A stretch of DNA of 60,260 nt, the filler included. It is 5 parts of 5 records of this genome, joined end to end, with 100 filler letters (N's around TTAATTAATTAA, not from the genome) between each part and the next. Parts side by side here need not be neighbours in the genome. Positions count along the whole stretch, not along the records: positions 18,330 to 45,199 come from DRR723986_14353; 4 more parts are not named here. One strand, written 5' to 3'. Below, in pieces: positions 27,117 to 32,867 of this stretch (positions are counted from its first letter, which is position 1; the number at the start of each line of letters is the position of its first letter). The notes beneath the pieces are model-generated. The model saw nothing but the letters and a program-made list of their open reading frames with translations, was not told the origin of the DNA and searched no databases. Made by a program: the position numbers and the translations under genes.

Positions 27117-27322
27117 AGCCGCAGATTTTTCTCAATCGTGTAATGTTTCCTGCAGAGTCTCGCCCGGTGTGCCGGGCCGGAACAGGTTTCCAAACATCCT
27201 CCTAATGACCGCGCGTAAACTCTCATAACGGGTTACGCGTGGGCTTAAGGGGAAGTGCGTAGTGTCCATATTCCGGGCTCTCCAGAAGGAGTGTCCGCCC
27301 TCTATTGGAAAATGGTGTGGAT

Positions 27323-27595
27323 ATGGAACAGCAGAATGCAAAACCGATGAGCGTGAAAGGCCCGGATGGCCAGAAGCTCACCATGGCGGATCTCCCGTCG
27401 CCGAATATTTCCCGTTGGGTTACCCGTCGCAAGGCTGAAGTGGTTGCCGCCGTTGCCGGTGGTTTGATCAGCCGTAAGGCGGCTTGCGACCGCTACAATC
27501 TGACGGATGAAGAGTTCGAAGGCTGGGAGCGTCTTTACCTGCGTCACGGCGCCAAAGGCCTGCGCACCACCCGTCTGCAACAGTATCGTCGCTAG
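27323..27595 (+). CDS. sciP: CtrA inhibitor SciP (DUF1153)
   Basis: GPDG..LT.ADLP, RWVTRRKAEVVAAV.GGL and GLRTTRLQQYR. Confidence 0.93.
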   Translation: MEQQNAKPMSVKGPDGQKLTMADLPSPNISRWVTRRKAEVVAAVAGGLISRKAACDRYNLTDEEFEGWERLYLRHGAKGLRTTRLQQYRR

Positions 27596-27602
27596 GCCGC
27601 TG

Positions 27603-27618
27603 TTAAACCCAAATTTAC
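27603..27618 (+). promoter_or_regulatory. CtrA box upstream of the mini-fliF operon
   Basis: TTAA-ACCCAAA-TTTAC, one mismatch from TTAA-N7-TTAAC. There is an extra GTTAAC at 27628-27633 and GANTC sites at 27651 and 27669. Confidence 0.7.
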
Positions 27619-27677: not shown

Positions 27678-28340
27678 ATGGCGCACCTAGCAACCGGTAT
27701 CTCGCGCGGCGCGACGCCTTCCACACGGGCGCTCGCGTTCGCGGCATGTGCCGTGGCGCTGGGCCTGCTCGCATGGCGCGGCAGCGATATTGTCAGCCGT
27801 GCGCCAGCATCACCCGGTCCGCTTTCCCAGTCTGAAGCCTCTCTCCTGTCCGTCGCCGAGGCGATGGCGGGGCAGGGGCATGTCCGCATTTCTATCGTCC
27901 GCCATCCGGGCGCAATCCGGCAGGTCCTGTTGCTGCTCGACGACAAGGCCAGCGTGGATGACGGGATGCTCACCAACACAATTTCCATGGCAGCCGGGCT
28001 CGATGCGGCCAAAGGCGAGCGGGTGGATCTGCAGCGCGTTGCCTTTGCGCCCGGTGTAACGGGTGCGCCGCTGCCGCGTGACTGGGCCGAATTGTCCTTG
28101 CTGGCCTTGCTGGCTGGCCTCTTGGGCTGGATCGGATTGAAATCGGATCGAAGAGAAGAGACGCCTGTCGAACTGGTACAGGAAACACTTCCCGCCCGCA
28201 TGACGTCGCAGCCTGCTGAACCCGCCATCCGCCCTGCACCCTCGCACGATGACGATGCTGCTGATCTTGCCCGCCGGGATCCTGGCCGCGCCGCAGATGT
28301 CGTTCGCGCCTGGATGAGCGGCAATGGAGGCAATGCATGA
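27678..28340 (+). CDS. fliF: Highly reduced FliF (MS-ring)-like protein, 220 aa
   Basis: TM1; RBM3-like segments (EAMAGQGHVRISI and AAGLDAAKGERVDL...F); TM2; FliG-binding tail (RDPGRAADVVRAWM). It is directly upstream of fliG. Confidence 0.7.
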   Translation: MAHLATGISRGATPSTRALAFAACAVALGLLAWRGSDIVSRAPASPGPLSQSEASLLSVAEAMAGQGHVRISIVRHPGAIRQVLLLLDDKASVDDGMLTNTISMAAGLDAAKGERVDLQRVAFAPGVTGAPLPRDWAELSLLALLAGLLGWIGLKSDRREETPVELVQETLPARMTSQPAEPAIRPAPSHDDDAADLARRDPGRAADVVRAWMSGNGGNA

Positions 28341-29269
28341 GTGCGCTGACGATCGCCCACAAAGAGACAGCGGCAGATGGCCTGATGCGATCTGCACGCC
28401 TGATGCGGGCACTGGGTCCGGATGCGGCGCCGATCTGGGCGGAACTCTCGAAATCCGAAGTGCAGGCCCTCACCGCTGCCATGGATGCGCTCGGCCCATC
28501 AGCGGAAGGCGAATCCGAAGCAGTCTCGCAGTTCATGGCAGCACACCGGCGGCTGCGCGCTCCGGCCAATGCAGGCGCATCTGTCTGGCGCCGGCTATCG
28601 GACGCGGGCACCGAGACGCTGGCGGGTCTGTTTGCTGGCGAGCATCCGCAGACGGTCGCCCTGATCCTGTCGCGGCTGGAAGGGGAGGCATCTGCCCGCC
28701 TGTTGCGCGCATTGCCGCCAAAGCTTGCCATCGATGCGATGCAGCGCCTGCTGAACCTGGGGCCGGTCCATCCGGCGGCGCTTGCGGCTCTTGAGACCCG
28801 GCTCGACGCCGTCCTTGCGGCGAACGCCGGAAGTGGGCAGGCGACCGGTCACGAGCGCGTTGCCCGCATCTTCGACCGGCTCGACAGCCGGTCCGAAAAG
28901 ACATTCCTCGCCGCGCTCGATCATGCCGAACCGGGGGCAGGCGAGAAGGTGCGCGCGCTGATGTTCACTTTCGACGACCTGGCCAGCCTTGATGCGGCCG
29001 GCCTGCAGACACTCTTGTCGGCTGCAGATCGCGCGGCGCTCGTGGTGGCGCTGAAGGGGGCCCGTCCGGATACGGCCTCGGTCTTCTACGCGAACATGAC
29101 CCAGCGCGCGGGTGATCTGTTACGTGAGGAAATCGCAACGCTCGGCCCGGTCCGCCGCAGCGAGATTGAAGGCGCCCGTCAGGAACTAGTCGCGCTGGCC
29201 CGCACACTGATGCAGCGCGGCGATATTCGTGCCGATGGCACGGTGGAAGACGATGAGCTGGTCGACTGA
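28337..29269 (+). CDS. fliG: Flagellar motor switch protein FliG
   Basis: EHPQTVALILS, LMFTFDDL and torque helix NMTQRAGDLLREE..LGPVR. Confidence 0.92.
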   Translation: MSALTIAHKETAADGLMRSARLMRALGPDAAPIWAELSKSEVQALTAAMDALGPSAEGESEAVSQFMAAHRRLRAPANAGASVWRRLSDAGTETLAGLFAGEHPQTVALILSRLEGEASARLLRALPPKLAIDAMQRLLNLGPVHPAALAALETRLDAVLAANAGSGQATGHERVARIFDRLDSRSEKTFLAALDHAEPGAGEKVRALMFTFDDLASLDAAGLQTLLSAADRAALVVALKGARPDTASVFYANMTQRAGDLLREEIATLGPVRRSEIEGARQELVALARTLMQRGDIRADGTVEDDELVD

Positions 29270-29688
29270 TGCAGCGCGCCGTCAAATCCCTGCAGCCATT
29301 CGATTTCCGCAGCGATTTTACCCTGCAGCCGGAACCGGAACAGCCGGTCTTTCCGGTCGAGGAAAAGATCACACTGTCTGCACCGGACCTGGCCATGCTT
29401 CTGACTGAAGCGCGCGCCGAGGCCCATGCCGCTGCCATGTCTATGAGGCATGAAGAACAGAATGTGCGCCTACAGCAGCTGACAGAAAACCTGAAAGAGG
29501 CGCTCGCGAATCTGGTAACGCTGGCGGGGCATCTGGAAACCAGCGCCTATTCGGACGGTTTCCGGCAGTCCGCCCTGCGCCTCGTTACGGCAACGGCCCA
29601 GCGGATCGTCGACGGACAGGGCGATCTGTTTGCACAAAGCCGGGAATTCAGCCAGAATAACTGCCCGACCGAGAAGGATGGACCATGA
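29269..29688 (+). CDS. Short FliH/FlbE-like protein
   Basis: Lies between fliG and fliN; N-terminal PFDFRSDF resembles the FliH/FlbE N-terminus, followed by an alanine-rich helix EARAEA. Confidence 0.55.
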   Translation: MQRAVKSLQPFDFRSDFTLQPEPEQPVFPVEEKITLSAPDLAMLLTEARAEAHAAAMSMRHEEQNVRLQQLTENLKEALANLVTLAGHLETSAYSDGFRQSALRLVTATAQRIVDGQGDLFAQSREFSQNNCPTEKDGP

Positions 29689-29951
29689 CCCAGCCCGCCA
29701 ATCCTGCCTTGCAGAAGTCCCTGATGGACGTGCCCGTGCGTGTGGACGTGGTGCTGGGCGAAGTGCGCATGCCGATGGAAGAACTGGTGGCCATGTCGGC
29801 AGATGATGTCGTGGCGCTGGAGCGGCGGACGGACGAACCGGTCGAGATTTATGTCTCCGACCGGCTGATGGCCCGCGGGCGCCTCGTTGTTGCAGATGGG
29901 CAACTCGGGGTCACGCTTTCGGAGATCGTGGACTCCCGCGAAGCCGCTTAA
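29685..29951 (+). CDS. fliN: FliN (SpoA domain)
   Basis: DVPVRVDVVLG, EPVEIYV..RLMARG and LGVTLSEI. Confidence 0.88.
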   Translation: MTQPANPALQKSLMDVPVRVDVVLGEVRMPMEELVAMSADDVVALERRTDEPVEIYVSDRLMARGRLVVADGQLGVTLSEIVDSREAA

Positions 29952-30164: not shown

Positions 30165-31172
30165 ATGCGTATGAAAATGTTCGCCGCCGAGACCTTCGAG
30201 GCTGCCAAGGCGATGATTTTTGCCGAGATGGGAGCCGATGCGGTCATCCTGTCCGAGCGCGAAATCGATGGCGGTGTGGAAGTCAGGGCGGCGGTCGACA
30301 AGATGGGCGGCGTCGGCATGGTTCCAAATGAGCCGCTGTTCCTGCGCGATGCGCGCGGAGGCGGCCACGGCCGGGGGTCCGAAAACCCACTGTTCAGCCG
30401 CGTGCGCGATGCGCTGCTCTGGCACGGTTCCCCTCAGCGCTTCGCAGATCGTGTGGCTGCGGAAGGCGCAGGCCGCGTCCAGCTGAAAGACCCGGAAGAG
30501 GCGATTGCCGAGGGTCTTGCCCGTATTGTGACATGCGATCCGCTGCCGGCGCGTCTCGACCGCGATATTCTTCTGGTCGGTCCCCCAGGACACGGCCGCA
30601 CGGCAACTGCCGCAAAGCTGACCCGCCGCGCCGCCATGGCGCGGGCGGAAGTCGCACCCGTTGCCGCCGATCTCGACGGAACCGCAGGCGGGGATCAGCT
30701 GGCCGCCTACCTGGAACGGGAAAAGGGCCAGATCCGCACCTGCCAATCGCCGGACGAGCTGTTCGGTACGCTCAAGCAGCTGAAATCCGAGAACCGCCGC
30801 TGCGTGATCGACCTGCCGGCGATCAATCCCTTCGATGACGATGACATGGCCAGCTTGCAGGACCTGATCTCGGTCATCCGTGCCGAGCCTGTTCTTGTCA
30901 TGTCAGCCGAAGGCCACCCGGATGACCAGCTCGAAGCCGCGCGCGGTTTCGCGCGAGCCGGAATCAAGCGGGCCATCGTCACTAAACTTGATGTTGTCCG
31001 AAGGAGGGGCGGGGCAATCTCTGCCTTGTCGTCGGCCGGCATTGCCTTCTCCCATCTTGCGGTCACCCCGTTCATCGGTGGCGGACTGGTCCCGGCAGCG
31101 CCCATGCGTCTTGCCGCCCTGTTGATGGAAGACGCCCCGGGCGACGTGATCGCCCTGAAAGGAGCCGCGTAA
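30165..31172 (+). CDS. flhF: FlhF-like SRP-type GTPase with degenerate motifs
   Basis: FlhF N-terminus MRMKMF.A....A...I..EMG.DAVILS; G1 GPPGHGRT...AKL; G4 TKLD; upstream of a MinD-like gene. Confidence 0.78.
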   Translation: MRMKMFAAETFEAAKAMIFAEMGADAVILSEREIDGGVEVRAAVDKMGGVGMVPNEPLFLRDARGGGHGRGSENPLFSRVRDALLWHGSPQRFADRVAAEGAGRVQLKDPEEAIAEGLARIVTCDPLPARLDRDILLVGPPGHGRTATAAKLTRRAAMARAEVAPVAADLDGTAGGDQLAAYLEREKGQIRTCQSPDELFGTLKQLKSENRRCVIDLPAINPFDDDDMASLQDLISVIRAEPVLVMSAEGHPDDQLEAARGFARAGIKRAIVTKLDVVRRRGGAISALSSAGIAFSHLAVTPFIGGGLVPAAPMRLAALLMEDAPGDVIALKGAA

Positions 31173-31176
31173 TCCC

Positions 31177-32019
31177 ATGAGTTTCATGATGCGCAAATCG
31201 CAGGAACGTCCGGCACCGCGGCCCACGCCGCGGCGGGTCGAGCCTGCTTCGATCATCGCGGTTGCGAGCGGGAAGGGCGGCGTCGGCAAGACGTTCATGG
31301 CCATCACGCTGGCATCGGCCTTCGCCCAAGCGGGTAAACGTACCTTGCTGGTGGATGGGGACCTTGGCCTGGCCAATGTCGACGTCCAGCTTGGCATAGC
31401 ACCTGAAACAGACCTCGCGGCGGTAATCGCCGGCTGGGTGGAGCTTGATGATGCGGTTACGCCGGTTGATGGCGGCGCCGCCGACGGCGGGTTCGATGTG
31501 TTGCCGGGCCGGTCAGGCTCTGGCGCACTGGCCGAACTGCCCCCGGAAGAAGTGGCCCGCCTGGCGGCCGGCCTCTCCGCGCTGGCCTTGCAATATGACC
31601 AGGTTGTGGTCGATCTCGGTGCCGGGATCGAAGCCAACTGCATGCGGCTTGCCCGCGCGGCCGACAAGGCGCTGATGGTGATCACGGACGAACCGACATC
31701 GATGACTGACGCCTACGCCTTCATCAAGGTGCTGCGCGGCTATGCACCGAATGTCGAGCCGGTGGTCTGCATCAACCAGGCCGACAGCCGTGCTGCCGGA
31801 CAACGGACTTATGAGGCTATTGCCCGGGCCTGCCAGACATTCCTCGGCTTCCGCCCGCATCTTGCTGGTGTGGTGATCCGCGACCCGAAGGTCCGCGATG
31901 CAATCCGTTGCCAGAAGACACTGATTTCCACAGATCCTCAGGCTCAACCCATCCAGGACGCCATCGCCATCAGCCAGATGCTGATCGGTGACGCCCCGGC
32001 AGCGGAGCTTGGCAATTAA
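31177..32019 (+). CDS. flhG: FlhG/FleN MinD-like ATPase
   Basis: SGKGGVGKT, DGDLGLANVD, VDLGAGI and EPTSMTDAYAFIK. Confidence 0.88.
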   Translation: MSFMMRKSQERPAPRPTPRRVEPASIIAVASGKGGVGKTFMAITLASAFAQAGKRTLLVDGDLGLANVDVQLGIAPETDLAAVIAGWVELDDAVTPVDGGAADGGFDVLPGRSGSGALAELPPEEVARLAAGLSALALQYDQVVVDLGAGIEANCMRLARAADKALMVITDEPTSMTDAYAFIKVLRGYAPNVEPVVCINQADSRAAGQRTYEAIARACQTFLGFRPHLAGVVIRDPKVRDAIRCQKTLISTDPQAQPIQDAIAISQMLIGDAPAAELGN

Positions 32020-32153: not shown

Positions 32154-32867
32154 ATGCGCGTCCTGCTAATTGAAGACGATAGCGCCGTCGCGCGTTCCAT
32201 AGAGCTGATGCTGAAGTCTGCTGGCTTCAACATCTACACCACCGACCTCGGTGAAGAAGGTGTCGATCTTGGCAAGGTCTACGAGTACGACATGATCATC
32301 CTCGATCTGTCTCTGCCCGACATCTCCGGCTATGAAGTCCTCAAGCAGCTGCGCATGGGCCGCGTGAACACGCCGGTCATGATCCTCTCCGGCAACCCGG
32401 ATATCGAAGCGAAAGTCCGTACGCTGGGCTATGGCGCTGACGACTACCTCACCAAGCCGTTCAACAAGGACGAGCTGATCGCCCGCATCACCGCCATTGT
32501 GCGCCGCTCCAAAGGCCATGCCGAGAGCGTGATCCGCACGGGCGAGATCCTGGTGAACCTCGACGCCAAGACGGTGGAAGTGGACGGCGATCGCGTGCAC
32601 CTCACCGGCAAGGAATACCAGATGTTCGAGCTGCTTTCCCTCCGGAAGGGCACGACGCTGACCAAGGAAATGTTCCTCAACCACCTCTATGGCGGTATGG
32701 ATGAGCCGGAGCTGAAGATCATCGACGTCTTCATCTGTAAGCTCCGCAAGAAGCTGCAGCAGGCCACCGGCGGCAACCACTATATCGAAACGGTTTGGGG
32801 CCGCGGCTACGTCCTTCGCGACCCGCGCCCGAGTTCGAAGACGAGCGAGGTCGAAGAGGCCGCGTAA
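32154..32867 (+). CDS. ctrA: Cell-cycle master regulator CtrA
   Basis: [52 protein letters not shown] and a C-terminal AA (ClpXP-type degron). Confidence 0.97.

Follow-up and report, generated by a model that had tools for sequence, protein, structure and literature searches.

The closest described relative of the protein considered here is FliF itself (PF01514 plus PF08345; structures 6scn, 8z5v, and 8z4d), with which it has in common two transmembrane helices, the RBM3 domain, a C-terminal tail, and a place before fliG. However, FliF has 500–600 aa, whereas the protein considered here, termed mini-FliF, has 220 and is without RBM1, RBM2, and the beta-collar; the system to which it belongs, unlike FliF systems, has neither its own export gate nor its own rod. 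SpoIIIAG keeps the beta insertion and, unlike mini-FliF, is not known to have a FliG-binding tail. What SpoIIIAG has in common with mini-FliF is a stand-alone RBM3-like domain with a membrane anchor, the homology being stated in PMC8786727. In sister Hyphomonadaceae, fliF lies in the Caulobacter-type order flgD-flgE-sciP-fliF-fliG-fliH-fliN-flbD-flhA-flhF-fleN. Flagellar derivatives known to us have retained the export apparatus and given up the motor. No description of a short FliF or of a retained motor was found in the literature searched, most subscription journals lying outside that search.

The window, that is, the whole stretch of DNA analysed (60,260 nucleotides), contains the following features:

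27305..27595, + strand: sciP, encoding a CtrA inhibitor (NF051866 over cut-off), which marks the ancestral fliF locus
27603..27617, + strand: CtrA-type box, sequence TTAA-N7-TTTA, located 75 bases 5' of where mini-fliF starts
27678..28340, + strand: mini-FliF, 220 aa (ORF, profile, model, and fold evidence)
28337..29269, + strand: FliG, 310 aa (Pfam matches to the N, M, and C domains)
29269..29688, + strand: FliH stub, 139 aa (alignment with the 217-aa ancestral FliH at the same position)
29685..29951, + strand: FliN, 88 aa, SpoA domain only (PF01052, TIGR02480)
30165..31172, + strand: short form of FlhF with atypical GTPase motifs (TIGR03499 below cut-off)
31177..32019, + strand: FleN/FlhG-like MinD ATPase (MinD-family matches), extremely conserved
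32154..32867, + strand: ctrA, a neighbour (NF045991 over cut-off)

The 3' end of the mini-FliF ORF overlaps the start of fliG. The window is without motA, motB, and fliM, so the full rotor–stator set described below is that of relatives only. The ctrA product is likely to be the regulator of the mini-FliF operon. A CtrA-type box with at most one mismatch (consensus from PMC6180460) is found, some 75 bases from the gene, in 18/18 mini and 7/7 ancestral upstream regions, these being counts without a shuffled control. An 18-base element immediately 3' of the CtrA box is present in 7/7 ancestral promoters (upstream of fliF in L077, L080, L082, L083, L092, L093, and L094) and absent from the mini-fliF promoters; we take it to resemble an FlbD site, which would fit the loss of flbD. 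In three metagenome bins, ctrA is split (L006:14474-15186), a kinase-like gene is split (L010:8330-9412), or fliN is read through (L021:11450-12520), all of which are probably assembly errors.

Within mini-FliF, four parts can be delimited:

27723..27797, + strand: TM1, residues 16–40 (model helix; hydropathy peak 18–36)
27822..28049, + strand: RBM3 core, residues 49–124 (superposes on 6scn 242–438)
28074..28139, + strand: TM2, residues 133–154 (model helix), with the conserved E138
28254..28316, + strand: C-terminal two-helix tail, residues 193–213, putatively FliG-binding by homology

As a single sequence, mini-FliF has no match in Pfam or NCBIfam, PF01514 (RBM1 and RBM2) included, so homology had to be sought with profiles. 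With a cut-off of E<=0.001, a profile of 30 sequences matches 209 clusters, of which the best 150 are mostly proteins of 195–239 aa, plus ten long ones (494–572 aa), all ten with both FliF families, PF01514 and PF08345. Against the PDB, this profile gives only ABC-transporter noise. An alignment of 123 sequences (112 of the 146 new proteins, those kept having 195–240 aa, 10 relatives, and the query, four short FliF-like pieces being left out) gives a profile that matches Salmonella FliF (PDB 6scn) with E=9.8e-6 in two pieces, profile positions 46–73 on 6scn 241–268 and positions 84–218 on 6scn 396–559, the mini-FliF tail being aligned to the Salmonella C-terminus.

The AlphaFold2 model of mini-FliF (pLDDT 82.8) has helices at residues 16–40, 51–64, 95–106, 133–154, and 193–213 (the last stretch comprising more than one helix) and strands at 69–76, 80–88, and 115–121. 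When the model is compared with 48,161 structures, the three best matches are FliF RBM3 chains (Z 9.8, 9.7, and 8.7; rmsd 2.3–2.5 over 75–77 residues), the next row having a Z of 7.4, and the superposition on 6scn covers 76 residues (Z 9.8). Foldseek is weak with the same model, placing FliF at ranks 5–8 (E 0.03–0.05), and none of its matches reaches E<=0.001. The best 50 structural matches do not include SpoIIIAG, which excludes nothing. In the ESM Atlas, the first match is the protein's own cluster. Other short proteins outside the family (194–275 aa; P0170, P0185, and Atlas rows) combine a hydrophobic segment at the N-terminus with an RBM3-like part; proteins with RBM3 only may have arisen more than once.

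The original prediction had described a FliF trimmed to TM1, the RBM3 core, TM2, and the tail; profiles, model, and fold match bear out this anatomy, and all five motifs then quoted lie in the protein, at residues 18–33, 61–73, 80–89, 105–123, and 201–213. There are two hydrophobic peaks (18–36 and 136–154), and the predicted pair of helices flanks a periplasmic region, as in FliF. E138 is a glutamate in 111/123 aligned relatives and aligns with the invariant TM2 glutamate of ancestral-type FliF; in the tail, P202 is conserved in 122/123, R210 in 111/123, and W212 in 121/123. From W33 to G65 there are only 27–38 residues in 123/123 relatives, RBM1 and RBM2 being gone, and the beta-collar of RBM3 is replaced by a short turn near residues 77–79. 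On ancestral-type FliF, the mini-FliF blocks fall at 239–266, 361–371, 389–425 (these three being the RBM3 core), 446–466, and 522–554. The two in-frame domain losses also proposed are found to map to RBM1 plus RBM2 (about 190 aa) and to the beta-collar (about 94 aa), with two smaller losses besides. Since the stretch that replaces the collar (R70 to L84) has 10–16 residues in 123/123 aligned relatives, a strain-specific deletion or a misassembly is ruled out. Profiles and model thus show the 220-aa ORF to be real and to encode a minimal FliF, with TM1, a collar-less RBM3, TM2, and a tail that is FliG-binding by homology; from the sequence we infer that this tail may bind FliG and that the protein may form rings.

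Relatives with names are Hyphomonas, and the nearest named ones have 84% identity in the mini-FliF protein. In 34 loci from named genome records, an ORF of 217–236 aa lies 3' of sciP, so that the short form extends across the family, and fliG follows it in 33, the contig ending in the other. Among 232 Hyphomonadaceae genomes, mini-FliF has matches in 196 at E<=0.001, of which 156 reach E<=1e-20, these being the strong carriers referred to below; in a 301-genome sample of the order, all 53 matches are Hyphomonadaceae members already seen. Against five relatives, the pairwise dN/dS of mini-FliF is 0.14, 0.14, 0.17, 0.24, and 0.31, compared with 0.04–0.11 for FliG, 0.12–0.27 for the FliH stub, 0.02–0.05 for FliN, 0.04–0.07 for FlhF, and 0–0.012 for FleN (below ctrA). 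Mini-FliF is under purifying selection, and the earlier claim that selection rather than random truncation shaped it holds, given one short form family-wide, dN/dS values of 0.14–0.31, and a tail that is its most constrained part. Of the further claim, that of a minimal C-ring anchor, the selection stands, but what had been seen was one piece of a larger rotor–stator set.

The origin of this set is seen in the comparison with full-length FliF, which is present in 186/232 Hyphomonadaceae genomes in two score bands. In 19 of 20 loci fetched from the higher band, the order is fliF (548–604 aa)-fliG-fliN-flhF-fleN, fliH, flbD, and flhA filling the gaps in the one ancestral locus scanned fully; the twentieth, from G160, is of another type. 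The order flgD-flgE-sciP precedes fliF in 18 of these 19, sciP thus lying upstream of full-length fliF in 18/19 ancestral-type loci and of mini-fliF in 20/20 mini loci, so that relatives without the mini form have the long FliF at the site where mini-fliF lies in the others. The 20 mini loci fetched all have the order sciP-mini-fliG-(fliH stub, matched in 18)-fliN, without a match to flgD/E or fliI, and in 10/20 flhF-fleN has moved away from the operon. Only 1 of the 59 genomes with a FliF of the ancestral score (G160) also carries the mini form. The FliF of the lower band lies in a complete cluster of its own, which is annotated in H. jannaschiana and seen in 18/20 fetched loci, and the order of which (motB-flgE-flgK-flgL-flgI, fliP-fliN-fliH-fliF, fliL) matches the Phaeobacter fla1 table (PMC12363192). 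In a tree of 38 FliG rows, the 15 relic rows (from the mini-FliF loci) group as a single clade (100/100) that falls on the ancestral side, on a long branch and away from the 10 second-cluster rows; between relic and second-cluster FliG, identity is only about 20%.

In one large branch of the Hyphomonadaceae, the ancestral FliF of Caulobacter type has been reduced to mini-FliF, and a Rhodobacterales-type second cluster took over flagellum building there. Since most carriers (121/156) have both forms, the full FliF lying in the second cluster, mini-FliF is not the working MS-ring protein of the cell; it is the anchor of a retained rotor–stator set. The donor FliF of mini-FliF could not be named by sequence: profile probability is 96.6 for the ancestral type versus 97.1 for the second cluster, identity is 22% versus 21%, and in a tree of 46 rows and 169 columns the 14 mini-FliF rows are one clade (100) with no supported sister. 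A donor of the second cluster was not named by sequence either (best plasmid match 37% identity; a FliG search listed only Hyphomonadaceae), so its Rhodobacterales type rests on gene order; to judge from this pattern in unrooted data, it would have arrived by transfer. The exceptional genome G160 (L089) has a complete cluster of a distant type (31–47% identity to the usual second cluster), its row in the FliG tree having a long branch, and is either a second replacement or a binning mix. Two ancestral-type genomes, G167 (L132) and G205 (L133), have an extra cluster with a 374–396-aa FliF/SctJ-like gene that also holds fliI, flgD, flgE, flgI, flgH, and flgG.

Four mini-FliF genomes each contain four genes with a FliM/FliN C domain, two motA, two motB, and one flhA, versus three, one, one, and one in an ancestral control genome; the single FlhA lies in the second cluster in 4/4, and at least two motA are present in 114 of the 121 genomes with both FliFs. 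The relic FliG is without about 30 aa after the fourth helix (the end of the N domain), its M and C domains being intact; its fold matches 5tdy_B 5–71 (FliG-N 10–76) and 8ucs_H, and its torque charges K240, R257, E264, E265, and R273 align with Salmonella K264, R281, D288, D289, and R297. The FliH stub, which has no family match in Pfam or NCBIfam, keeps the N-terminal motif and the C-terminal QGDLF and has lost the C-terminal domain of about 90 aa, the one that binds FliI. In two genomes, an extra FliM-like gene, fliM', adjoins dksA in the same orientation, which is the arrangement expected if fliL and flgF-H had been deleted from the ancestral block; fliL is gone from beside fliM'. FliM' keeps the SpoA domain and the N-terminal docking motif for CheY/Cle, the site at which Cle proteins dock on FliM (PMC5677366); its middle domain is alignable, yet has no PF02154 match in 3/3.

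The extra motB adjoins the same dehydrogenase gene as the ancestral motB and has a shortened linker. The aspartate of the proton site, whose role is described in PMC7885107, is present in 32/32 relic MotB, and both wall-binding motifs are present in 26/32 with a strict pattern. Relic MotA has a Glu98-like residue and both prolines (Pro173/Pro222-like) in 32/32 and an Arg/Lys90-like residue in 29/32 (two of the 30 new loci, dropped by the pattern, were checked apart), and all 32 are closer to the ancestral than to the second-cluster MotA. The roles of Arg90, Glu98, Pro173, and Pro222, like those of the FliG torque residues, we take from E. coli. The features of a rotor–stator unit are thus present: the FliG torque charges, the MotA residues, and a MotB with its aspartate and wall-binding domain.

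FlhF is present in 226/232 genomes of the family and is single-copy in nearly all. Its residues 1–43 match the FlhF model; its G1 reads GRT and its G3 reads DxP, the latter also in 4/4 ancestral FlhF. The P-loop lysine is replaced by arginine in 4/4 relic and 1/4 ancestral FlhF, and DxxG is found in none of the eight; to judge from these motifs, GTPase activity is doubtful. FleN is almost invariant, and no other member of the set is as conserved; in ancestral loci its gene comes after flhF.

The old system has therefore been cut to a rotor (FliF', FliG, FliM', FliN, and the FliH stub), a stator (MotA and MotB), and FlhF/FleN. In each trimmed protein, the missing part is the one turned towards a partner that has been deleted, namely RBM1/2 for the export gate, the collar for the rod, and the FliH C domain for FliI, and the rotor–stator surfaces have been spared. 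Chemotaxis loss does not track the relic, since CheW is absent from 3/4 mini-FliF genomes (G001, G097, and G044) and present in the fourth (G022) and in the ancestral control (G175).

Two further observations concern the surroundings of fliM'/dksA. A second flbT and, after it, a gene of 103–117 aa without a family match lie there, outside the second cluster, in 3/3 genomes (flbT at L156:11222-11608, L158:12162-12548, and L159:5438-5818), and this flbT is possibly another retained ancestral piece. Diverging from dksA, where the ancestral block has fliX-flgI, is a conserved gene of 427–504 aa without a family match (L156:8950-10236, L158:9893-11176, and L159:6796-8310), the product of which is a candidate partner of the relic.

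INDEPENDENCE from swimming is seen in 35 of the 156 strong carriers, which have no PF01514 match, and in one more with a sub-threshold scrap only. In these 36 genomes without a full FliF, MotA, MotB, and FliN are each present in 36 and FliM' in 33; FlhA is absent from 33 (one of the three present being a scrap) and flagellin from 34 (present in 2). None of the second-cluster markers (full FliF, FlhA, flagellin, and second-cluster MotA/MotB) is found in 31/36, and pieces of that cluster are found in 5/36. The usual flank of the second cluster, followed in five genomes, consists of non-flagellar DNA beside dus in 3/5 and of contig ends in 2/5. Many of the 36 are metagenome bins, and bins can lose a 40-kb block; a real absence is favoured because a single gene such as flhF is missing from only 6/232 genomes, a 90% completeness filter retained four of the 36, and the cluster flank of G117 is spanned by a 2.5-Mb contig that has no flagellar genes there. 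In G117 (L227), the relic motA has one in-frame stop near residue 149, the only such case among 36 relic motA genes; it could mark the onset of decay or be an error. An export gate, ATPase, rod, hook, and filament of its own are absent from the relic (FlhA and flagellin being counted genome-wide).

The matching genes are transcribed in H. neptunium. There, sciP-hypothetical-fliG-hypothetical-fliN (HNE_1390-1394) lies outside the motility island, and in the tables of PMC7200025 the wild-type RPKM values of HNE_1391-1393 are 101, 33, and 95, with a 1.5–2.1-fold increase in a divJ mutant (p 0.10–0.23). The same tables give the stand-alone motB HNE_0894 an RPKM of 81 and place it in the direct CtrA regulon; the gene in the mini-fliF position, HNE_1391, is marked there as not CtrA-bound, but the summit of the CtrA peak assigned to sciP lies some 55 bases upstream of HNE_1391. 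The SpoA-domain gene HNE_0504 is probably the fliM' of this species. Four metatranscriptome runs from one study cover the window locus in patches, which, as contigs only with no joints or indels, are not proof of transcription.

The relic is a flagellar rotor–stator set, kept under selection without export or propeller, and this suggests that its motor now does a non-swimming job. We consider it highly probable that it is a selected non-swimming module. As for the job, signalling in the switch from swarmer to attached cell (swim or stick) is the best guess, with a likelihood somewhat below even, by analogy with Caulobacter, whose rotor mutants signal adhesion via MotAB/DgcB and whose Cle proteins dock on the FliM motif. 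According to PMC7885107, Caulobacter mutants with a rotor and no outer parts drive adhesion and holdfast via MotAB and DgcB, FliF and the proton flux being needed. The mini-FliF tail would hold FliG at the membrane, RBM3 would let mini-FliF molecules pack side by side, and FliG, FliM', and FliN would form a rotor resembling a C-ring, to be engaged by the retained MotA/MotB, through which protons would pass; FlhF and FleN might place this rotor at the pole. Since there is no shaft, the output cannot be swimming; instead, the state of the rotor–stator contact might be read as the signal for the switch, as the Caulobacter motor does via c-di-GMP. The points against such an assembly are the loss in the FliG N domain, the FliM' without a PF02154 match, the absence of fliL, and the collar present in the RBM3 construct known to form rings (residues 231–438; PMC8786727).

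A dedicated rotary sensor, which would turn or stall on proton flow and inform the CtrA/c-di-GMP life-cycle switch of the load on the envelope, of contact with a surface, or of the energy state, strikes us as rather unlikely. Against the motor as a tetherless sensor, a point that weighs on the signalling reading as well, is the Caulobacter motor without a filament, which signals all the time (PMC7885107).

The main rival to signalling is a landmark or counter for the new flagellum, in which a dummy basal body would mark the pole and set one flagellum per cell, the cell's own FlhF/FleN pair and the FliF-FliG-FliM-FliN that it recognises having been kept because the second cluster brings no FlhF/FlhG. 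The single-copy FlhF and the near-invariance of FleN fit this, as does the Phaeobacter fla1 table of PMC12363192, which lists neither flhF nor flhG. Moreover, according to PMC11236974, Shewanella FlhF binds FliG and recruits FliF-FliG to the pole, specifically for the polar system, and FlhG binds the N-terminus of FliM. However, an intact proton-conducting stator is left unexplained, and the set is kept in the 31/36 genomes that show none of the second-cluster markers, which makes this rival improbable.

Another possibility is the control of division or polarity, in which the MinD-like FleN would use the MS/C-ring remnant as a polar platform against division or budding there. This would work without a flagellum, and FleN is both the most conserved member (dN/dS 0–0.012) and beside ctrA in the window; FlhG and basal flagellar parts reportedly control division in Campylobacter jejuni. 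We give this reading little credence, as it has no role for the stator and flhF-fleN lies away from the operon in half of the mini loci.

Marginally less credible is a role as spare parts, whereby relic MotA/MotB would be a second stator set and the relic C-ring proteins would mix into the rotor of the second cluster. Two stator sets are present in 114/121 genomes, the second-cluster FliM is itself degenerate, and dual stators are known in Pseudomonas (PMC7885107). However, the set is retained without flagellin or FlhA, the two FliG proteins have diverged to about 20% identity, and a FliF without a collar does not fit into a ring that bears a rod.

A slowly decaying remnant with no present job, to which the long branch of the relic FliG, a mini-FliF dN/dS above that of housekeeping neighbours, and the one motA stop might point, is very improbable given open frames of constant length in more than 100 clusters at 50% identity and in 150/150 among the genomic matches listed, dN/dS far below 1, invariant catalytic residues, a conserved promoter box, and transcription in H. 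neptunium.

If signalling or another non-swimming job is indeed what is selected, the relic separates that job of the motor from motility in a natural experiment spanning a large branch, even where the swimming genes are gone. H. neptunium has both the genetics and the gene order, so that the relic could be knocked out without touching swimming, which is impossible in Caulobacter, and a natural minimal FliF suits the question of whether a collar-less RBM3 templates a C-ring. A rotary sensor, if true, would be the missing counterpart of the injectisome and a ready test of the disputed idea of the tetherless motor as a sensor. Matches to fliG, motA, and motB in these genomes do not mean motility.

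Compared with known systems, the relic equals the sister ancestral system in its locus, promoter box, and FliG and MotA lineage, and in the placing of fliM beside dksA and of motB beside the same dehydrogenase gene; it differs in that its loci are without flgD/E, flbD, flhA, fliI, fliL, and the rod and ring genes, and in that five rotor proteins are shortened. Dual systems such as Fla1/Fla2 of R. sphaeroides also have two sets of motor genes per genome (PMC6180460 and PMC12363192), and the flgB-fliI arrangement of H. neptunium matches R. sphaeroides fla2 according to PMC6180460; however, both R. sphaeroides sets are complete, whereas the relic set builds no flagellum and is kept even when the complete set is lost. 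The hat-like structure, which PMC9380563 shows not to be FliF in H. pylori, the injectisome, and the relic are all cases of flagellar parts reused after gene loss. The injectisome and export-only derivatives keep the export gate and lose the stator, whereas the relic keeps stator and rotor and loses export. The mechanical pathway of Caulobacter crescentus (PMC7885107) and the Cle–FliM interaction (PMC5677366) need exactly the parts that are retained here; however, the Caulobacter signalling motor is the swimming motor with its export gate, whereas the relic, known from its genes, is a separate and permanently shaft-less set.
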